From the NCBI GenBank assembly GCA_963734495.1, contig CAVTHK010000009.1, positions 320,001 through 384,000 of the forward strand: 64,000 nucleotides of DNA, read 5' to 3'. The translations under genes were made by a program, and so were the position numbers. Below the pieces are notes generated by a model. The model was given only the letters and a program-made list of their open reading frames with translations. It searched no databases and was not told where the DNA came from. Positions 34,848 through 57,665 of this stretch are shown here, in pieces (within the stretch, counting starts at the first letter, position 1; every line of letters starts with the position of its first letter). The DNA is from an uncultured Spirochaetota bacterium (GTDB taxonomy: Bacteria; Spirochaetota; Spirochaetia; SZUA-6; CAVTHK01).

Positions 34848-36098
34848 GTGACTGACTGGGGGTTCGAGACCAGGGCGATCCACGTCGGCGCGGAGATCTC
34901 GAAAGAGTGGGGGGCGACCCAGACGCCGCTCTACCAGTCGGCAGCGTTTGCCCATCCGGGCCTCGAAGAGGTCGAGGACGTCTTCGCGGGCAGGCGCGGG
35001 GGGTTCCTCTATTCGCGCATCGGCAATCCGACCGTCAGCGTGTTCGAGCAGCGGATGGCGGCTCTCGAGGGCGGCGTGGGGGCGCTGGCCGCGGCCTCGG
35101 GCATGGCCGCGATCGCGACCGTGGCCTTCGCGCTCACGCGGCAGGGTGACCGGATCGTGGCGAGCTCCAGCCTCTTCGGCGGGACGCTCGGGCTCTTCGA
35201 CCGCGTGTTCGGCCGCTACGGGGTGGAGACCCGCTACGTCAGCCCGACCGACCTCGACGCGGTCCGCGCCGCGATCACGGGCCGCACCCGCCTGCTCTTC
35301 GTGGAGACGATCGGGAACCCCAGGGTCGACGTCCCCGACGTGCAGGCCCTCGCCGCCGTCGCGTCCGAGCGGGGCGTGCCCCTGGTCGTCGACGGCACGC
35401 TGTCCACGCCGTACCTGTTCCGGGCCAAGGAACACGGAGCGGCGATCGTCGTGCACTCGGCCACCAAGTACATCACGGGCAACGGCAGCGCGGTGGGCGG
35501 CGTCCTCGTGGACCTGGGCACGTTCGACTGGTCGACCCACCCCGACCCCGACCTCCGCGACGCCTCGCGCAAGGTGGGGCGCGAGCTTGCGTTCCTCAGC
35601 ACGGCGCGCCGCGTCGTGCACGCGAACGTCGGCGGCTCGCAGTCGCCGATGAACGCGTGGCTCCACGCGATCGGCCTGGAGACGCTCGCCCTCCGCATGG
35701 AGCGCCACTGCAGCAACGCCCTCGCGCTGGCGCGGGCGCTCGCGGCCCACCGGGGCGTCGAAGCCGTGGGCTACCCCGGGCTCGACGACAGCCCGTGGCA
35801 CGCCACCGCGGAGCGGCAGTTCGGCGGCCGCTACGGGGCGCTGCTCACGGTGCGGCTGGGCAGCCGCGAGCGCTGCTTCCGGGCGAGCCGGGCGCTGCGG
35901 CTCGCGCGCATCACCCCGAACCTCGGGGACGCGCGCACGCTGGTCATCCACCCGGCATCGTCGATCTACCGGGATGCCGACGAAAAGGCGAGGCTCGCCG
36001 CGGGGGCGCCCGACGACCTGCTGCGGGTGAGCGTCGGGATCGAGACGCCGGCGGACATCGTGGCCGATTTCGAGCAGGCCATATCGGCCGCGGGCTGA
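34848..36098 (+). CDS. metY: O-acetylhomoserine aminocarboxypropyltransferase (MetY-like)
   Basis: YSRIGNPT, ASGMAAI, ETIGNP, HSATKY (PLP lysine), NLGDARTLVIHPAS. Confidence 0.88.
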   Translation: MTDWGFETRAIHVGAEISKEWGATQTPLYQSAAFAHPGLEEVEDVFAGRRGGFLYSRIGNPTVSVFEQRMAALEGGVGALAAASGMAAIATVAFALTRQGDRIVASSSLFGGTLGLFDRVFGRYGVETRYVSPTDLDAVRAAITGRTRLLFVETIGNPRVDVPDVQALAAVASERGVPLVVDGTLSTPYLFRAKEHGAAIVVHSATKYITGNGSAVGGVLVDLGTFDWSTHPDPDLRDASRKVGRELAFLSTARRVVHANVGGSQSPMNAWLHAIGLETLALRMERHCSNALALARALAAHRGVEAVGYPGLDDSPWHATAERQFGGRYGALLTVRLGSRERCFRASRALRLARITPNLGDARTLVIHPASSIYRDADEKARLAAGAPDDLLRVSVGIETPADIVADFEQAISAAG

Positions 36099-36112
36099 AA
36101 GGGGGAGGACGC

Positions 36113-36946
36113 ATGGGACTGCGGGAAGACCAGATCGTCCGTTACAGCCGCCACATCCTGCTCCAGGGCGTGGGCGGCACAGGCCAGGAGAAGCTCCTCA
36201 GCTCGAAAGTCCTGGTGGTCGGCGCCGGCGGGCTCGGGTCCCCGATCGCGCTCTACCTGGCCGCCGCGGGGGTCGGGACGCTCGGGATCGTGGACTTCGA
36301 CCGCGTGGACCTGAGCAACCTGCAGAGGCAGATCCTGCACGGGACGGCCGACGTGGGCCGCGAGAAGGTCCTCTCGGCGCGGGAGAGCATCGAGCGGATC
36401 AACCCGGACGTCAAGGTCGTCGCGATCGCGGAGCGGCTCGGCGCGGACAACATCCGCGACGTGATCCGCGAGTACGACTTTGTCGTGGAGGGCACGGACA
36501 ACTTTCCCACCAAGTTCCTCGTCAACGACGCCTGCGTGTTCGAGGGCAAGGCCTTCAACCAGGGCGGCATGCTCCGCTTCCAGGGCCAGACCATGACCTA
36601 CGAGCCGGGCCACGCCTGCTACCGCTGCGTCTACGTCGAGCCGCCGCCCAGGGGCGCCGTGCCCACGTGCAGCGAGGCCGGCGTCCTCGGCGCGATCTCG
36701 GGGATGCTCGGCACGATGCAGGCGGCCGAGGCGCTGAAGTACCTGCTGGGGATCGGCGAGACGCTCACCGACCGCGTGCTGATGTTCGACGCGCTCACGA
36801 TGGACTATCGCACCGTGCGCGTGAGGCGCAACCCCCGCTGCCCGGTCTGCGGCGAGCACCCGACCATCACTGAGCTCAGGGAGTACGAGCAGCCGGCGTG
36901 CGACCTGGATCCGGCCGCGTCCGTCCCCAAGGAAGGATCGGTATGA
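36113..36946 (+). CDS. MoeB/ThiF family adenylyltransferase (HcyF-like)
   Basis: RYSRHI, GAGGLGS, SNLQRQ, CYRC, TCSEAGV, CPVC. Confidence 0.93.
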   Translation: MGLREDQIVRYSRHILLQGVGGTGQEKLLSSKVLVVGAGGLGSPIALYLAAAGVGTLGIVDFDRVDLSNLQRQILHGTADVGREKVLSARESIERINPDVKVVAIAERLGADNIRDVIREYDFVVEGTDNFPTKFLVNDACVFEGKAFNQGGMLRFQGQTMTYEPGHACYRCVYVEPPPRGAVPTCSEAGVLGAISGMLGTMQAAEALKYLLGIGETLTDRVLMFDALTMDYRTVRVRRNPRCPVCGEHPTITELREYEQPACDLDPAASVPKEGSV

Positions 36947-49514: not shown

Positions 49515-51895
49515 GCTCGGAAGCTTCCGCGGCGGCGCCCGCGCGGGCGGTGAGCGGCGCGCGCCTCTCGCGCGCCATGAGCTTCAACATCGCGGGCGGC
49601 GTGATGGCGCAGGCCTGGTTCGCCGTCTGCGGGCCCCAGCAGATCTTCAACGTCTTCTTCAAGAACCACCTGCACGCCTCCGCGTTCACGCTCGGCCTCC
49701 TGGTGGCGCTGCTGTCCTTTTCCTCCGCCTTCAGCCTCCTCGCGGTGCTCATGTTCACCAGGCCCCGCCGGCGCAAGCCCATCTGGATCGCGGCCCACCT
49801 CGCCGCCCGCTCGATCGGCTTCGTGCTGGCGGCGGCTTCGCTTCTGGAGATGCGCACCGGCGACAAGCCTCTCGCGATCCGCGTGATCCTGCTCTCGATG
49901 TCCGTGGCGTGGTCGCTCATGAACGCGGCCGGCCCCGGCTGGTGGGCCTGGATCGCCGACCTGATCCCGGAATCCAAGCGCGCGACGTTCTTCGGCCGCC
50001 GCTCGGCGATCATCTTCGCCCTGAACATGTCCTGGATCTTCCTCGTCACCGTCTTCCTCGACGGAGCCCGGCGGCCCGCGCTCGCCTACGCGGCCGCGTT
50101 CGCGGTCTCGGGCGTGTTCGGGGTCGGAGACATCCTGCTGCACATCTGGATTCCCGACCCGGCGCGGCTCGGCCCCCGGCCCGGCGCGCCGGGAGGGCCC
50201 GCGCCCGACAGGCCCGCCCGCATGTCGCTCGCCGTCTTCTTCGAGCCGCTGCGCAGCCCGCAGTTCGTGCGCTTCTCCCTGGCGGTGGGCCTCGCGATGC
50301 TGTCGATCAACGTGCTCGCCCCGTTCATCCCGCCGTACATCACGGACCCCGCGACGGTCGGGGCGCCCTACACCTGGCTGGGCATCATGACCGTCATCTC
50401 GCAGCTCGCGTGGGTCGGCTCCGTGCGGACGTGGGGCGTCCTCATGGACCGGTTCGGCCGCAAGCCCGTGGTGGCCCTCTGCAGCCTCTTCCCCATCGCC
50501 TGGTTCGCGTACCTGGCCGTGGGCCCGCGCACGTACGTCGTGCTGCTGCCTCTGATCTCGCTCGCCGGCGGCGTGCTCGCCCCCGGCTTCTACGAGGGGG
50601 TCAACCAGCTCATGCTGAGCCTGACCCCCAACGAGAACCGCACGACGTACGTGGCGTGGTACGTTGCGATCATCGGCGTCATAGGCGCGCTCGGCTCGCT
50701 GCTCGGAGGCGCGCTCGCGTCCAACACGGTGATGCTCGACCCGCTGCCCGGTGAGCCGTTCCACGCGGTCGTGGTGGTGGCCGAGGTGCTCACGGTCCTG
50801 AGCTTCCTCGTGCTCACCCGCATCGACGAGGGGCGGAAGACTTCGACCTTCGACATCGTCACGCGCCTCGCGACGCCGAACGTGGTGCGCAACCTCGTGA
50901 ACATGAGCATCATCGGAGGCGCCGAGGAGGCGGGGCGGGCGGCGCGGGCGCTGCGCACCGTCGAGGGGGCGGAGAGCGACGTCGCCATCGACGACATCGT
51001 CGGGCGGCTCTCGGACCCCGACCGGGAGGTGCGCGAGGAGGCGGCGCGCGCCCTCGGCCGCATCGGCAGCGGGGAGTCTTTCGACGCCCTGGTCGCGCAG
51101 CTGCGCGACGGGGAGTCCTCGATCAGGCCGGAGGCGGCGCACGCCCTCGGCCATGTCGGCGACCCGCGCGCGGTCACCTGGCTCCTGCAGGCGCTTCAGG
51201 ATCCGTCGGTGGAGCTGCAGGAGGCGGCCGCCGAAGCGCTCGGCGACCTGGGCAGCCGCGAGTCGGCGCAGACGCTGCTCGCGATGCTCCGCGGCAACCA
51301 GGCCACGGAACGGGTCAAGGCGCAGGGCGCCGAGGCGCTGTCGCAGCTCGGCGCGGTGGAGGCCGTCTGGGAGATCGTCCCCCTGCTGCACCGCACGTCC
51401 AACGCGGTGCTCAGACGGCAGCTCGCCATCGCGCTCGCCAACCTCTTCGGCCGCACGGGAGAGTTCTACCGTTACGTGACGGGGGAATCCGCGCGCGCCG
51501 AGGCGCGCGGCGAGCGCCTCGCGGGCGAGGCCGAGCGGTCACTCCGCCGGCTGGTGCGCGACGTCTCGCCGGACGCGAAGTCGCAGATCCTGCGGCGCTT
51601 CGCGGAAGCGCGCGAGGCCTTCGACGCGGGAGACAGCCTGCGGGCCCTCGGCTGCGTCCGCGACCTGCTGTTCGTGCTCGCGCTGTTCCGGCACGAGATC
51701 GCGCCTCCGGCGGGCGAGGGTGCTGCCGCCTGGGCGGTCGGGCGCGATCAGCGCCTGGCCGTCGCGCTCTGGGTGCTCGGCGAGGCGCTCGCGGCGCAGG
51801 GCAGCGCCGTGCAGAAGATCGACGCGCTGCTCGCGTTCTACCTGCTGAGGTACCTCCCGGGGCCGGCCCGCGCTCAGAGCCGGCCGCAGGCGTGA
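49511..51895 (+). CDS. MFS transporter fused to a C-terminal HEAT-repeat domain
   Basis: Multiple TM segments with motif A (DRFGRKP), then repeats VREEAARALGRIG, IRPEAAHALG, LQEAAAEALGDLG. Confidence 0.85.
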   Translation: MSSEASAAAPARAVSGARLSRAMSFNIAGGVMAQAWFAVCGPQQIFNVFFKNHLHASAFTLGLLVALLSFSSAFSLLAVLMFTRPRRRKPIWIAAHLAARSIGFVLAAASLLEMRTGDKPLAIRVILLSMSVAWSLMNAAGPGWWAWIADLIPESKRATFFGRRSAIIFALNMSWIFLVTVFLDGARRPALAYAAAFAVSGVFGVGDILLHIWIPDPARLGPRPGAPGGPAPDRPARMSLAVFFEPLRSPQFVRFSLAVGLAMLSINVLAPFIPPYITDPATVGAPYTWLGIMTVISQLAWVGSVRTWGVLMDRFGRKPVVALCSLFPIAWFAYLAVGPRTYVVLLPLISLAGGVLAPGFYEGVNQLMLSLTPNENRTTYVAWYVAIIGVIGALGSLLGGALASNTVMLDPLPGEPFHAVVVVAEVLTVLSFLVLTRIDEGRKTSTFDIVTRLATPNVVRNLVNMSIIGGAEEAGRAARALRTVEGAESDVAIDDIVGRLSDPDREVREEAARALGRIGSGESFDALVAQLRDGESSIRPEAAHALGHVGDPRAVTWLLQALQDPSVELQEAAAEALGDLGSRESAQTLLAMLRGNQATERVKAQGAEALSQLGAVEAVWEIVPLLHRTSNAVLRRQLAIALANLFGRTGEFYRYVTGESARAEARGERLAGEAERSLRRLVRDVSPDAKSQILRRFAEAREAFDAGDSLRALGCVRDLLFVLALFRHEIAPPAGEGAAAWAVGRDQRLAVALWVLGEALAAQGSAVQKIDALLAFYLLRYLPGPARAQSRPQA

Positions 51896-51970
51896 GCGGG
51901 CGCAGCCGCGGGCGGGCGCCGGGAGCGGGCGGGCAGCTTCGCGCGGGGCTCCGTGACGGGGGCGCAGGTC

Positions 51971-53456
51971 TCAGGTGACCAGCGTCAGGGCGGCGAGCCC
52001 GACGAACACGACGGCGAGAGCGAGCTTCACGGTCCCGATGTGCGCCTGCGCGGCCCGCGTGAGCGTCCGCGAGCTCACGCCGCGCCAGGCGAGGACGAAC
52101 ACGACGGCAAGCGGCAGCACGAAGGCCACGTTGTAGATCGCGAGCAGCAGGTAGGCGGCGAGCCCGCCTTCGGTGCGCACCAGCCAGGCCACTGCGGGGA
52201 AGTAGACCTGGCCCGTGCAGGCCAGCTCGAACAGCGACACCACGGCGCCGAGGACGAGCGAGCCCCCGACGATCGCGCCCGAGCGCGCGTTGTCGAGGAT
52301 CGTGCGCTGCATCCTGCGCTTGATCGGCTCGGGCAGTCGCAGCGCCATCTCGGCCGCGCGGCCGCTGCGCGCGAGCGCGAAGTCGCGCAGGCTCAGGGCC
52401 GCGAGCGCGAGCAGCACGGCGACCAGTACCCACCGCAGGGCGACCGCGACTCTCGGGAACGACGCCGCGGCGCGCAGCGAATGGAACAGGCCGAGGCCCA
52501 CGGCAAAGTACGCGGCGAAGACGGCAAAGGTGAAGGCCGACCCCGCGAGCAGGATCTCCGCGCGGCGGCGGCCCGCGAGCACGAGCGAGGTGAGCAGGAA
52601 GATGATGGTCGTAAAGGCGCACGGGTTCACGCCGTCGACCAGGCCCGCGGCGAACAGCGCCGCCGGCGCGAGCCGCCGCGCGATCCCCGGCAGCCGGGGC
52701 AGGGGCGGGGGCGACGGCGCCCGCCGCCGCGCCGCCGCGCGCGGCCAGCGCCGCCTCCATCCCGCTTTCGATCTCCGCCTCGCCCGAGAGCACGCGGCCG
52801 CCGACGATTGCGGCGGGCAGGGCCGGCGGGCCGGACGAGCCCGCCGCGGCCGAGAGCTCCTCGAAGACCGCGGGCTCCAGCACGTTCCTGCGGGCGATGG
52901 CGACCGGCCCGCCGGGCCGGCCCGAGAGGCGCGCCTCGAGCCGCGCGATCATCCGCTCGCAGCTGCGGCATCCCGGGGCGTAGTAGAGGAGGACCGCGCC
53001 GCCCGCCCCGGCGTCGGAGAGGCCGGCGTTGGGCGAAGGCGGGGCGGCCGGGGCGGGCTGCGGGCTCGCAGGCGGGTTCACCATGCCCGTGACCCGGTAG
53101 AGCCAGCTCGTCCCGCCGCCCGGCGCGGGCGAGGACGGCGCCGAGCGCACCACGAAGTAGACGTCGACCTTGCCGGGCTCTTCGGGCGTGTAGCGAAGCT
53201 CGACCGCCTCCTCGGCCCCGGCCGCGAGCTCGAAGCGCGACGGGACCGCCTCCAGGCAGCCGCAGGTGCTCACGAGCGAGACGGCGATCGTCGTGCTCTC
53301 CGGGTTGGCCGCCCTGATGATGCGCGTGACCATGCCGCCGATCTCGATCCGGCCGAGGTTCCAGTCGGCCGGCGTGAGCGTCGCCTGGGCCGCGGACGGC
53401 CGGGCCGCGAGCAGGGCGAGAGCCGCGGCTGCGATCGTTACGACGGGGGAGCGCAT
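51971..53456 (-). CDS. Exported Ig-like (DUF1573-type) + CxxC thioredoxin-like + CcdA/DsbD-like membrane protein (frameshift near 52680)
   Basis: STCGC, YYAPGCRSC, then DGVNPCAF and FELACTGQVY. Confidence 0.8.
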
Positions 53457-54074: not shown

Positions 54075-54259
54075 GGGTCCAGTGTATTGAGGCCGCGAAC
54101 GAGGGGCAAGCGGGGCGGCCGCGAACGGGCTCGGGGTCGCGTGCCTCGGGGTTCCGTCCTCGGCGCCGCCTTTCGCCGACCGCGATCGGCTTCGCACGCC
54201 CCGCCTCGGACTCTCAGACTGCGGCCGTTCACCTGGGTGAGACCGGGCACAGCCACCAC

Positions 54260-55858
54260 TCACAACACATCATCCTTGCCGCGGAACGCCTTTCTTGCGA
54301 AGCCCAAGAGGCGGCCGATTATCCCCTTCTTCCGATACAGAGCCGCGTAGTACGCCAGCCTGTTGGCTTCCTCCGCTCTACGGCCGGCCTCGATCTGTTG
54401 CGGTGACCATTTGAGCGACCACACGACCGCTCCTCGACGAATGAGGTAGTGTGACTTGCACGCCAGCTGCCAGTTGCCTATGGACGGCCGCACTGTAGGC
54501 CCCTCAACCGTTTCCTCAATAGACCATTCTGTCGGCCCCATAGGCGTCTTGACCTTGCATCCGCATCCGCAGGGACAAAGATGCATGGCGATGTCGAACT
54601 CCTCGGCGACGTACAGTACCCTGGGTTCGAGCACCGCCGGCATGTATTGGACGCGCTGCAAACGGAATCTGATCGGATCTTGAGGGGAGCCGACGGTCCT
54701 CATGTCGCCGATGTCGAACAGGACGTTGAAATACGGGACCTCCTCCAGGTAGAACCCGCGTGCCTGCTTGAACCTCATCACCGCTAGGCAAGCGTTGAGC
54801 GCGTTGAGCTCGCTGATTTGAATATTGCTTCGATATAGGTCGTCTGGGCTGTCGGAGAGCTCCGCGAGTTTCATGTCTCTCACGTTTCGACCGTCCGGCG
54901 ATGAATAGTATGTGGTCCGCAACATACCAGCGAGAGCCGCGCCCTGGCGCCTCAGACCCATTCCGACGTCTACAAAGGGTATTCCCTGCGAAAGCAGCAA
55001 GTCGAACACGGCGGCCCTCGAGGAGCCCTTGTCCACGCACACGAACGCGAACGTTACACCTGCGACATCCTCAGCGGAGGAGGCATCGATCAACCGCGGC
55101 ACAGCAATCAACCCGTTTCGGAAGTTGTCGTAGCGACGTCGGTAGACCTCCGCCTTCGGTTTGCCAAGTTCCCTTGCATCAAGCCTTCCGGGCGAGCGAA
55201 AGGCGTTGTGAACGTGATAGGCATCCAGATCGAATACGCGTATTTCTCGCACCGGCGTCTTCACGAGGAAGTCCAGAACATAAGAGCCCGTACCGCCGAG
55301 TCCGATCACTGCGATCACGTCGTCTTTGAAGAGCGCCGACAGATCCGATATTCCTGCTCTGCTGGTGAGAGTGTCCTGGAACTTGAACACGGAATCCGCT
55401 GCATGGTCGCCGAACGCTCGGTACGTGTAGGGAGTCGCGGCATACCGTTCCATCGCTGGGCCACAGATGATTGCGACGTAGCTTTCTATCTTCTCAAAGA
55501 AGTCCGCGAACTTCCCTTCGGTCCTCGGCTTGTTGGAGAACGATCTCTGGACCACAACGTCGGCGCTTGCGCCGCTCATGGGAAGTTGAGTGGCACCGCC
55601 CCCGAGGTTCGGGATGGGCTTGCCGTCGAGGCCGAAGGGAACCGATCCCGCGAAGTAAACTTGATGGTCGTCCTGGGCAACGTGCACTTGGTCTACGAAA
55701 ACGAGTTTCGCGACAAGCGCCCCGGTCTGCAGCTCGCCCTTTTCGTTCAGGTACGGGATGTCACGAACGACAAGGTATCCGGCGTCGATCGACACCGCAT
55801 ACCCCTTCTCCACCATGCGCCTAATGTCATCGTTATGACTGACCAGTCGCTGAAACAC
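54260..55858 (-). CDS. DUF6791-like + ThiF/E1 + DUF6527-like fusion protein of a Bub-type ubiquitination-like system
   Basis: N-terminal LVVRDIPY...DHQVYFAG...FSNKP, E1 core VIGLGGTGSY/HNAFRSPG/FVCVD/DVGMG/NIQISELNALNA, C-terminal HLCPCGCG...PSIGNW...CKSHY. GTG start at 55858. Confidence 0.85.
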   Translation of the reverse strand: MFQRLVSHNDDIRRMVEKGYAVSIDAGYLVVRDIPYLNEKGELQTGALVAKLVFVDQVHVAQDDHQVYFAGSVPFGLDGKPIPNLGGGATQLPMSGASADVVVQRSFSNKPRTEGKFADFFEKIESYVAIICGPAMERYAATPYTYRAFGDHAADSVFKFQDTLTSRAGISDLSALFKDDVIAVIGLGGTGSYVLDFLVKTPVREIRVFDLDAYHVHNAFRSPGRLDARELGKPKAEVYRRRYDNFRNGLIAVPRLIDASSAEDVAGVTFAFVCVDKGSSRAAVFDLLLSQGIPFVDVGMGLRRQGAALAGMLRTTYYSSPDGRNVRDMKLAELSDSPDDLYRSNIQISELNALNACLAVMRFKQARGFYLEEVPYFNVLFDIGDMRTVGSPQDPIRFRLQRVQYMPAVLEPRVLYVAEEFDIAMHLCPCGCGCKVKTPMGPTEWSIEETVEGPTVRPSIGNWQLACKSHYLIRRGAVVWSLKWSPQQIEAGRRAEEANRLAYYAALYRKKGIIGRLLGFARKAFRGKDDVL

Positions 55859-56084
55859 TGAACACCATTCCATCCTTGACCCTGACCGATCCATCCGGAG
55901 GGAGGATCCCTTCAGGCCTGTGCCCATGGCCCTTTTTGTACTTCACTGAGTAGGTGATCTCGGGGTGTTGCGCGTAGTCTGGCACGTCAAGGGTCAGTAC
56001 CTCGGCGTAGGTGATTTCGCCCTTCGTCCACTCGTGCGGAGTCCCATTGACGATGATCGTTATTGCTTTGATCACATGAACCAT
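55833..56084 (-). CDS. Ubiquitin-like (multi-ubiquitin family) protein, single beta-grasp domain
   Basis: ITIIVNG...ITYAEVLTL...YSVKY...GSVRVKDGMVFSVSATGQS. Overlaps the E1 fusion start by 26 nt. SD AGAAGGGGG. Confidence 0.85.
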   Translation of the reverse strand: MVHVIKAITIIVNGTPHEWTKGEITYAEVLTLDVPDYAQHPEITYSVKYKKGHGHRPEGILPPDGSVRVKDGMVFSVSATGQS

Positions 56085-56109
56085 TTGCATTCCCCCTTCT
56101 CTCGTAGCG

Positions 56110-56352
56110 CTACCGCTTGTCTCGCGGCGGAAACGGGTCGTTGCCTGGGGCTACGGTGTTCTTGTCCCTGAACCGACCGTCACGCCCCTGGATGGTGAGC
56201 TCGCCTCCGCCGGCGGTCTTCAGATTCTCGCGAGCGGCTCGAATAGCCGCACCCTGCGTCGGGTAGATGCGCTCGGCCCTCTCCGCGCCCACGCGTGCGT
56301 TCGCCCATCCCGTTCCCGACTTGTACACCAGTCGATCCTGCGGTTTGCTCAT
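56110..56352 (-). CDS. DUF2188 family protein
   Basis: W...RA...TQGAAIRAARE...GELTIQGRDGRFRDKNT..GNDPFPPRD. Confidence 0.88.
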   Translation of the reverse strand: MSKPQDRLVYKSGTGWANARVGAERAERIYPTQGAAIRAARENLKTAGGGELTIQGRDGRFRDKNTVAPGNDPFPPRDKR

Positions 56353-56399: not shown

Positions 56400-56489
56400 A
56401 ATATATAGCTGTTAGGTAATAGAGTCAAGAAACAAATCGTTTACTATTTGTATTTCTCTATTGCACAATACAAGCTGGTGTAGTACGTT
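56400..56489. promoter_or_regulatory. Back-to-back sigma70 promoters with a palindromic operator
   Basis: Minus strand TTGACT-17-TATATT (56428-56400). Plus strand TTGCAC-17-TACGTT (56461-56489). Palindromes TATTG-CA-CAATA and TTGTATT-N12-AATACAA. Confidence 0.65.
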
Positions 56490-56532: not shown

Positions 56533-57665
56533 ATGGCCGCAACCGACATTGGCAATAACACTCGGCGCCATATGAAGATACGTGGCTTTACTGTCCCTGC
56601 GTTGGCGAAGAAGTCTGGCATCGGCACCGCGACTCTGTCGAACATCCTGAACGGCAAATCGGAACCCAAGTCCTCTACCCTCATCGGTATAGCAGCGGCA
56701 CTTAGTGTGCCCGTCGTGGAGCTGGTCGCCGACTCGCCTGTCCTCAAGTCACTTCGCTTCAGAACTGCGAAGACTCTGAGCGGTAGGGAGAAAGCGGAAC
56801 GAGAACAACTCAAGCATGACACCGCGCTATGGTTGGCCAACTACAGCTTCCTGAGAGGCAATTGGGCGTGTATCAGGAATTCCGCCTCGGTGAAATCGGC
56901 GGAAAGGACCCAGAGCAGGCGGCAATCTCCGTCAGGCAAGCGCTGGACGTTCGGTCACCGGCAATTGCTGATCTCCCGCAACTAATGGAACAAGCCGGCA
57001 TCAAACTGAGAATCCGGAGGTTTGGCTTCAGGAAGACCTTCGGCATATCGGTGGGCGAGAACGATGGCGGACCCGCAATCGTGGTGAACTCGGAGCAAGG
57101 GATTCCGGTCGAACGGCAGCTGTTCAGCGTCGCGCATGAGCTCGGCCACCTTGTTCTTCACAAGAGCTCTTACGACCAGAGCAAGGTCGATGAGAACGAT
57201 GAAGAAGAGCGTGCAGCGAACCTCTTTGCGGGCCAGTTCTTGATACCCGACGAAGGCCTAGACAAATCGTGGGAGGATTCCAGAGGACTCCACTGGGTGG
57301 ACAGCGTCCTGGTCATAAAGAAGCATTTCAAAGTGAGCTACATGACCGTGCTCGTACGGCTCGCCCAGCGCTTGGCGAGGCCGGACCTTGACCTGGGAAC
57401 CCTGATCGCTCGATTCAGAATGGAATATGCGGATCGCCACGGCCATCAGCTGAAGGGCCACTACGAACCGGATCCCATTACCGGTCCAGTCGCGGATGAT
57501 GATCCCAGACACCTCGACGAGACCGATTTCGTAGAGGACCGGTTTGCCAGGCTCGTGCGGCAGGCGTTCGAGAAGGAGATCATTTCAATTGGACGAGCCG
57601 GCGAAATGCTGGGACACTCACTCGAAGAGATGCGCGCCTTGGCAAGGGCTTGGCAGGAGGTATAG
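56533..57665 (+). CDS. XRE HTH + ImmA/IrrE zinc metallopeptidase fusion (indel near 56853)
   Basis: LAKKSGIG.ATLSNILNGKSEP, then RQLFSVAHELGH (HExxH) and EERAANLFAGQFLIP. Confidence 0.92.

Follow-up and report, generated by a model that had tools for sequence, protein, structure and literature searches.

In this work, we analysed a 64,000-nucleotide stretch of DNA from an uncultured Spirochaetota bacterium (contig CAVTHK010000009.1, positions 320,001 to 384,000; below, "the window" means this whole stretch), and we provide evidence that it carries a Type II Bub operon whose last two genes, bubBD and bubE, have become one, here called bubBDE, with the product working as a single chain. We put the probability of this reading at about 85%. 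The new element is the architecture, i.e., a BubBD-BubE single chain that is rare, is kept by selection and has evolved more than once. Because the operon belongs to Type II Bub, its chemistry has already been published and only the fusion is new. An earlier reading of the window, made from the letters alone (the original prediction), had proposed that putative E2-like, E1 and protease domains acting on a ubiquitin-like protein (Ubl) are fused in one polypeptide, with the caveat that the read is rich in insertions and deletions (indels) and that the fusion could be an artefact; it did not assign the operon to the Bub family.

Type II Bub (formerly 6E.2, or the 'DUF6527' operon) was defined by Ye, Gong, Chambers and Corbett (bioRxiv 10.1101/2024.11.21.623953, PMC11601596) as a system of three separate products, and a companion preprint (10.1101/2024.11.21.623966) agrees with this definition. 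According to Ye et al., the Bub E1 uses a tyrosine on the crossover loop and the E2 a serine, so that oxyesters replace thioesters, while BubE is a Ser/His protease that has a C4 zinc site and clears Ubl-target conjugates inside cells. The same account reports a CapH and CapP pair beside 31% of Bub operons. For BubE it reports no solved structure, an extremely weak activity in vitro and a tendency to aggregate; it leaves open whether BubE only strips Ubl from targets, and suggests that the C-terminal amphipathic helices of the protein may touch membranes. The statement in the original prediction that the DUF6527-like unit is usually a separate gene, described as a Ser-His protease, is in agreement with this paper.

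In the window, the gene and its parts are arranged as follows, with residues numbered throughout according to the 537-amino-acid (aa) form that starts at the ATG at 55873:

54260..55873, minus strand: bubBDE, encoding the E2-like part, the E1 and the DUF6527 protease in one open reading frame (ORF); from the frame, Pfam and alignment.
55370..55831, minus strand: E2-like domain DUF6791, residues 15-168, with the candidate catalytic S113 (55535-55537) together with K115 and H70; from Pfam, conservation and spacing.
54689..55318, minus strand: E1 adenylation domain ThiF, residues 186-395, with GLGGTG at 191-196, R226, D281 and the crossover-loop Y347 (54833-54835); from Pfam, conservation and Foldseek.
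54671..54688, minus strand: six-residue linker, residues 396-401 (the SPQDPI region), derived from the overlap of the former bubBD 3′ end and bubE 5′ end; from alignment, the model and DNA comparison.
54263..54670, minus strand: BubE-type DUF6527 domain, residues 402-537, with the putative zinc site C433/C435/C437/C472 and dyad S464/H475; from Pfam and conservation.

A single minus-strand frame runs from 55927 to the stop at 54260-54262 without any internal stop and encodes 555 aa when counted from its first ATG. Besides this ATG, translation might start at 55873 (ATG, 537 aa), 55858 (GTG, 532 aa) or 55816 (ATG, 518 aa); the GTG corresponds to the 'VFQKLV/MFQKLV' start of most 397-aa relatives, and the public gene call on this contig (P0272), identical in sequence, begins at the ATG at 55816 and has 518 aa. 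On the 555-aa frame, Pfam finds DUF6791 at 33-186 (E 1.2e-41), ThiF at 204-323 (3e-12) and DUF6527 at 446-503 (2.5e-21), all three above the curated cut-offs, so the one open frame through three domains seen in the original prediction is borne out. All the motifs quoted there were located as well: FSNKP at 112-116, DLYRSN at 345-350, VGSPQDP at 394-400, CPCGCGC at 433-439, PSIG at 463-466 and CKSHY at 472-476. The fused protein is 68-72% identical to five BubBD proteins of 397/398 aa (alignment A1). In the whole assembly the fused gene is the sole DUF6527 match (n=1), thus indicating that the assembly holds no separate bubE.

The search for full-length three-domain homologues clearly showed that close homologues are not all split. 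The fused junction was found in 11 further database sequences, which are 71-93% identical, fall into nine 90%-identity clusters and come from JGI, Logan, NCBI and ENA assemblies. The top seven of the best 120 matches in a collection of 5.8 billion proteins (P0001-P0007, of JGI, Logan and NCBI origin) each contain the three Pfam domains, are 75-92% identical to the window protein and align without a gap across the linker, their full-length members being 530-532 aa long. P0121 and P0274 also hold the fused junction, and P0275 is an extra full-length member of the P0001 cluster, encoded on the metagenome contig L002. In the DNA of L002 and of a further metagenome contig, L011 (83% protein identity), the frame is likewise unbroken. 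When the window was compared with L002 and L011 over five segments (E2, E1, linker, BubE core and tail), the ratio of nonsynonymous to synonymous divergence (dN/dS) was 0.09-0.28 at a synonymous divergence (dS) of 0.40-1.07; for the linker with the first BubE strands it was 0.25 and 0.11, and for the BubE core 0.12 and 0.09. Since independent assemblies share the junction and dN/dS is low, the junction is old, shared and under purifying selection. Taken together, these sequence comparisons allow us to conclude that the fused frame is genuine, independently of this assembly. The caveat of the original prediction thus holds in one part and fails in the other: the read is indeed indel-rich, with the regulator and housekeeping genes split, but the fusion as an artefact is contradicted by the independent assemblies that share its junction.

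The DNA around the junction points to the way in which the two genes were joined. Where the two genes are split, bubE usually begins at an ATG placed within the final bubBD codons but in another frame, typically as ATGAAGATTGA, so that in a typical pair BubBD ends with ...GESELDED* and BubE begins with MKIELQRV. Alignment with the DNA of seven split relatives showed that the three fused sequences have two extra bases a few codons before the old ATG, and this ATG now reads ATC in the window, GTG in L002 and AAG in L011, which upholds the earlier observation that there is no ATG at the usual boundary. Because of the net +2-base change just upstream of the ATG, the E1 frame enters the bubE frame ahead of the stop. 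The comparison thereby shows, at the level of sequence, an origin of the fusion via a net +2-base change followed by loss of the ATG; the order of events was the change at the bubBD/bubE overlap, then the ATG loss, and then upkeep by purifying selection.

To estimate how frequent the fusion is, 160 related loci, made up of the 80 best matches in metagenomes and the 80 best in species-representative genomes, were examined with a motif-based script, which could score 139; the other 21, L009 among them, were incomplete or mismatched the motifs. The two genes lie in different frames in 127 of the scored loci and in the same frame with exactly one stop in 10 (for instance, ...GESEL*MKWKLQRV), and they are fused in two, L002 and L011. 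Of the 544 operons that Ye et al. list in Table S1, 139 are Type I and 405 are Type II, and no comment mentions a fusion of DUF6527; the phrase 'Fused to E1' occurs there 544 times, once per operon, for the deubiquitinase (DUB) or the E2.

Distant fusions were sought by exhaustive HMMER over 1.84 billion cluster representatives. Among the best 150 matches, which were examined, there were two distant three-domain proteins, P0132 (543 aa, 36% identity) and P0139 (490 aa, 34%), with quite different linkers. A search started from P0132 gave, among its best 120 matches, P0277 (546 aa, 77% identical to P0132), P0281 (533 aa, 43%) and P0380 (464 aa), all with three domains. Long proteins sought with the BubE part alone were eight in number, all from the window clade; this search required shared 5-residue words and was therefore blind to distant fusions. 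In a quick maximum-likelihood tree built from 69 rows of the BubBD part, the six window-clade rows group together inside a fully supported group of near, split relatives, while P0132 and P0139 have split proteins as neighbours in the opposite half. The label 'fused' needs four changes on this tree, of which at least two are forced by well-supported branches. On these data, the BubBD-BubE fusion is rare yet recurs in distant lineages.

The residues expected for Bub chemistry were examined in alignment A2, where 41 rows cover BubBD and 47 cover BubE. S113 and K115 are present in 41/41 rows and H70 in 39/39; R226 and Y347 are likewise found in 41/41. In the DUF6527 part, C433, C435, C437, C472, S464 and H475 are kept in 47/47 rows, which supports the earlier suggestion that PSI and SHY supply the Ser-His dyad. 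The distance between S113 and R226 is 113 residues, exactly as between S106 and R219 in the E. coli BubBD described by Ye et al., and Y347 lies 121 residues past R226, the E. coli counterpart distance being 123. S113 fits as the equivalent of E. coli S106 on its spacing to the adenylation Arg, not on alignment; blastn in distant mode against E. coli genomes, aimed at finding the E. coli BubBD, gave no match. By spacing and invariance, then, the Ser of FSNKP and the Tyr of DLYRSNIQ, proposed earlier as oxyester nucleophiles, fit the published ones. As judged from these comparisons, all residues tied to catalysis in Ye et al. are retained in the fused protein. Just as the original prediction had it, the E1 lacks CxxC pairs of the MoeB type and a catalytic Cys loop: its part of the chain contains only C279 and C362, and there is no CxxC in residues 1-395, while the MoeB-like ORF at 35657-36946 of the window does carry such pairs, CYRC and CPVC.

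The AlphaFold2 model of the fused protein has a mean predicted local distance difference test score (pLDDT) of 86.2, which between the domains falls below 50 at residues 395-398 only. In the model, the last strand of the E1 ends near residue 389 and the first BubE strand begins at 404, and the two C-terminal amphipathic helices of BubE are retained in the DUF6527 part, at 491-514 and 518-530. The best Foldseek matches were eight Citrobacter BubCD chains (E 6e-12 to 5e-11), followed by PaaA, ThiF, the NEDD8/SUMO E1s, MccB and Cap2. Phmmer and a profile search of the PDB matched Citrobacter BubCD weakly (E 0.003-0.02), and the alignments shown were of TcdA.

The neighbourhood completes the gene set of a Type II Bub operon, in which a DUF2188 gene, a Multi_ubiq Ubl gene and the fused gene follow one another, with a divergent regulator combining helix-turn-helix (HTH) and M78 domains:

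55833..56090, minus strand: bubA, 85-aa single beta-grasp Ubl (Multi_ubiq, E 4.9e-17) ending in SATGQS; from the ORF and Pfam.
56110..56352, minus strand: DUF2188 gene, which leads the operon; from Pfam.
56400..56428, minus strand: sigma-70-like promoter match TTGACT-17-TATATT upstream of the DUF2188 gene; weak, with 1 site vs. 0.9 expected in shuffles.
56533..57665, plus strand: divergent regulator, HTH_3 (3.3e-9) and Peptidase_M78 (3.2e-19), of the ImmA/IrrE type and CapH/CapP-like; from Pfam.

The stop of bubA falls 26-41 nt within the start region of bubBDE, and 146 of 152 related loci have a like arrangement. A same-strand DUF2188 copy just upstream of bubA was found by tblastn in 15 of the 127 related loci with sufficient upstream DNA. 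The regulator is one 375-aa chain in L011 (77-84% identical), while the window copy consists of two overlapping frames with a break near residue 108, which is probably an indel error. None of the six ORFs between 53463 and 57665 had a Pfam match to a JAB family. The locus thus has what defines Type II Bub, i.e., a Ubl gene upstream, a DUF6791-ThiF fusion, an E2 with Ser/Lys/His, an E1 with Arg/Tyr, DUF6527 and no JAB, and it departs from the definition in that BubE is part of the same polypeptide and not a separate gene.

By analogy with the published split systems, the E1 domain would adenylate the C-terminus of the 85-aa Ubl, and Y347 on the crossover loop would accept the Ubl as an oxyester; S113, aided by K115 and H70, would accept it next and hand it to a target. 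The DUF6527 domain, tethered about six residues past the E1 end, would then cleave after the Gly of the Ubl, with the outcome that either the Ubl is removed from targets or a conserved Gln-Ser precursor tail is trimmed. The fusion would hold protease and ligase at 1:1 and in one place, from which it would follow that the two act together in split systems too. An all-in-one enzyme that would mature, activate, transfer and possibly remove the Ubl, as put forward in the original prediction, is likewise an inference.

Maturation deserves particular consideration. The ORF of the Ubl gene ends in T-[G/S]-[Q/E]-S in 146 of 152 related loci (139 with TGQS, 5 with TSQS and 2 with TGES). This suggests that the two residues beyond the expected C-terminal Gly are a precursor tail, or else that conjugation occurs at an end other than Gly; the overlap with the start of bubBD may account for some of the conservation. 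Should conjugation take place at the Gly, as it does in Type I, the Gln-Ser tail would have to come off, and because Type II operons are without JAB, BubE is the obvious candidate for the maturase, so that welding it to the E1 would make sense. The conserved two-residue tail past the Gly gives some support to maturation of the Ubl by BubE. A bolder version, which we regard as possible and rather less likely than not to be correct, makes DUF6527 an obligatory on-enzyme partner and no free-standing eraser; it would dock at the E1, trim the Gln-Ser and pass the Gly straight on for adenylation. The repeated, independent fusions would count as 'Rosetta stone' evidence for such a complex, and the C-terminal helices would take writer and eraser to one cellular site.

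Several points weigh against an active single chain encoded in the window. The fused forms are known from sequence and from a predicted model, in which the arrangement of the domains is uncertain (predicted template modelling score, pTM, 0.61). The assembly is indel-rich; no sequencing run contained more than 0.13 of the sampled words, and reads of four runs gave zero cover over 54240-54700. With such an assembly and no read cover over the linker, the window's own frame rests on colinearity with its relatives. Within the window clade, whose support of 87 is below the 95 mark in a quick tree assessed by the Shimodaira-Hasegawa-like approximate likelihood ratio test (SH-aLRT) only, there are two broken copies, P0121 and P0008, the latter continuing through the junction and being frameshifted downstream. 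In another lineage, L009 is an aberrant fusion without the last ~50 residues of the E1. With P0008 and P0121 broken and L009 aberrant, some fused genes would seem to decay or to be misassembled. Furthermore, since the published activity of BubE in vitro is extremely weak, the role of the tethered DUF6527 domain could be non-proteolytic.

The L009 locus (1155-2585, 53% identical) is of note in its own right. There, the E1 is joined to BubE right after the crossover-loop motif (..QIS|VQRV..), with ~50 C-terminal E1 residues lost; this may be a deletion derivative or an assembly fault.

If the fusion were a sequencing or assembly error in an indel-rich contig, the organism would have separate bubBD and bubE. 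The surroundings lend this some colour: the adjoining HTH and M78 regulator is visibly split, the genes for pyruvate kinase, class-III aminotransferase, fructose-bisphosphate aldolase, an nSTAND protein and a major facilitator superfamily (MFS) transporter are each in 2-3 pieces along the contig, and 137 of the 139 scorable related loci are split. However, the identical mistake would be needed in unrelated assemblies, where 11 sequences of 71-93% identity have the same gapless junction, and L002 and L011 carry it in DNA with many synonymous differences around it. Moreover, the ancestral ATG and TGA of the overlap are both lost. We therefore consider such an error very improbable, and hardly more credit can be given to an accident, neutral or slightly harmful, that is in the course of being lost, in which the frame is kept because it is recent and the protease is inactive here. 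The small size of the fused clade, the broken P0008 and P0121 and the aberrant L009 in another lineage would suit an accident, but not the dS of 0.4-1.07 among fused members with a dN/dS of 0.09-0.12 in the BubE core, nor the retention of all six zinc and dyad residues, nor the fact that the architecture re-arose in distant lineages, with one pair (P0132/P0277) conserved at 77% identity.

Somewhat more weight, while still unlikely, belongs to the alternative that one transcript yields two proteins, either through an internal start (for instance, M411 of YMP, or in L002 the GTG that replaces the former ATG) or through self-cleavage of the linker by the DUF6527 protease, with ordinary Type II Bub function as a result. 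Split genes are the rule, with 127 of 139 loci in different frames and 10 of 139 separated by a single in-frame stop; the DUF6527 peptidase acts at a flexible tail according to the published account, and the linker is the sole disordered stretch between domains in the model. Against two proteins stand the loss of the old ATG (ATC, GTG, AAG), the dissimilarity between the linker GSPQDP and the Ubl tail TGQS, and the purifying selection on the linker segment (0.11-0.25). A single working chain thus remains the reading that we prefer.

The comparison with known systems places this chain closest to Type II Bub, represented by BubA-BubBD-BubE of E. coli ZDHYS365. Just as in that system, the order is Ubl, E2-E1 and DUF6527 with no JAB; the E2 has Ser with Lys and His, the E1 has Tyr and Arg with no catalytic Cys, and the protease has a C4 zinc site and a Ser/His dyad; an HTH plus M78 regulator adjoins the operon. 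Unlike in that system, a single polypeptide comprises both BubBD and BubE, the operon begins with an additional DUF2188 gene, and the regulator, as seen in the intact L011, is a single HTH+M78 protein and not a CapH and CapP pair. Type I Bub (Citrobacter BubAB, BubCD and BubE; PDB 9ea4, 9ea5, 9ea8, 9eae, 9eav) shares the E1 fold and the oxyester logic, and with its JAB at the N-terminus of the E1 it shows that a peptidase-E1 fusion is tolerated in the family. There, however, the peptidase is an N-terminal JAB metalloprotease, the E2 shares a chain with the Ubl and BubE is a protein of its own, whereas here a DUF6527 serine protease is C-terminal. Cap2/Cap3 of the Type II cyclic oligonucleotide-based antiphage signalling system (CBASS) likewise combines a bacterial E2-E1 fusion with a dedicated deconjugating peptidase, and Cap2 (7to3) was the structural match of rank 37; in contrast to the present system, Cap2 uses cysteine thioesters and conjugates the cGAS/DncV-like nucleotidyltransferase (CD-NTase) and not a Ubl, and its peptidase Cap3 is a separate JAB protein.

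No bacterial relatives of ubiquitination have diverged further than the Bub pathways, in which BubE is the part least understood. A natural protein with BubE welded to the E2-E1, maintained by selection and evolved anew in remote lineages, speaks for an action of BubE directly at the ligase. For structural and biochemical studies, the fused protein is at hand as a natural single-chain construct that may behave better than free BubE, and together with the conserved TGQS tail the fusion makes maturation of the Type II Ubl directly testable.

As to the contig itself, its composition breaks at the end of the fused gene:

54255..54265, no strand: composition break, ~68-75% GC (guanine plus cytosine) to the left, ~57% and lower to the right; from the GC profile.

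GC content is ~68% along the contig as far as the stop of the fused gene and ~54% over the last 50 kb (C9:374,260-424,061; L162, L163). This low-GC part contains genes for pyruvate kinase, ornithine carbamoyltransferase, class-III aminotransferase, fructose-bisphosphate aldolase, inosine monophosphate dehydrogenase (IMPDH) and Dus, many of them split by frame breaks; its content is housekeeping and not mobile-element genes. At the low-GC end, DNA of another organism may have been wrongly joined on, or a very large segment may be of foreign origin. What speaks against a simple mis-join is that in the independent contig L002 the cassette (51-57% GC) is likewise followed by DNA of 65-71% GC. Similarity between the window and L011 is confined to the 3.5-kb cassette, which may therefore be a small mobile module. 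The GC break leaves the reading of the fused gene unaffected.

Two other loci on the contig are worth recording. In the low-GC part (L163:9778-13729), an nSTAND1 NTPase in two frames is followed by a 686-aa WD40 repeat protein, a combination that looks like STAND-type signalling or defence. In the high-GC part, on the minus strand at 51411-53456, a thioredoxin-like or secreted N-terminal part and a DsbD-like membrane ORF (51971-52630) follow each other in different frames, which resembles another frame break.

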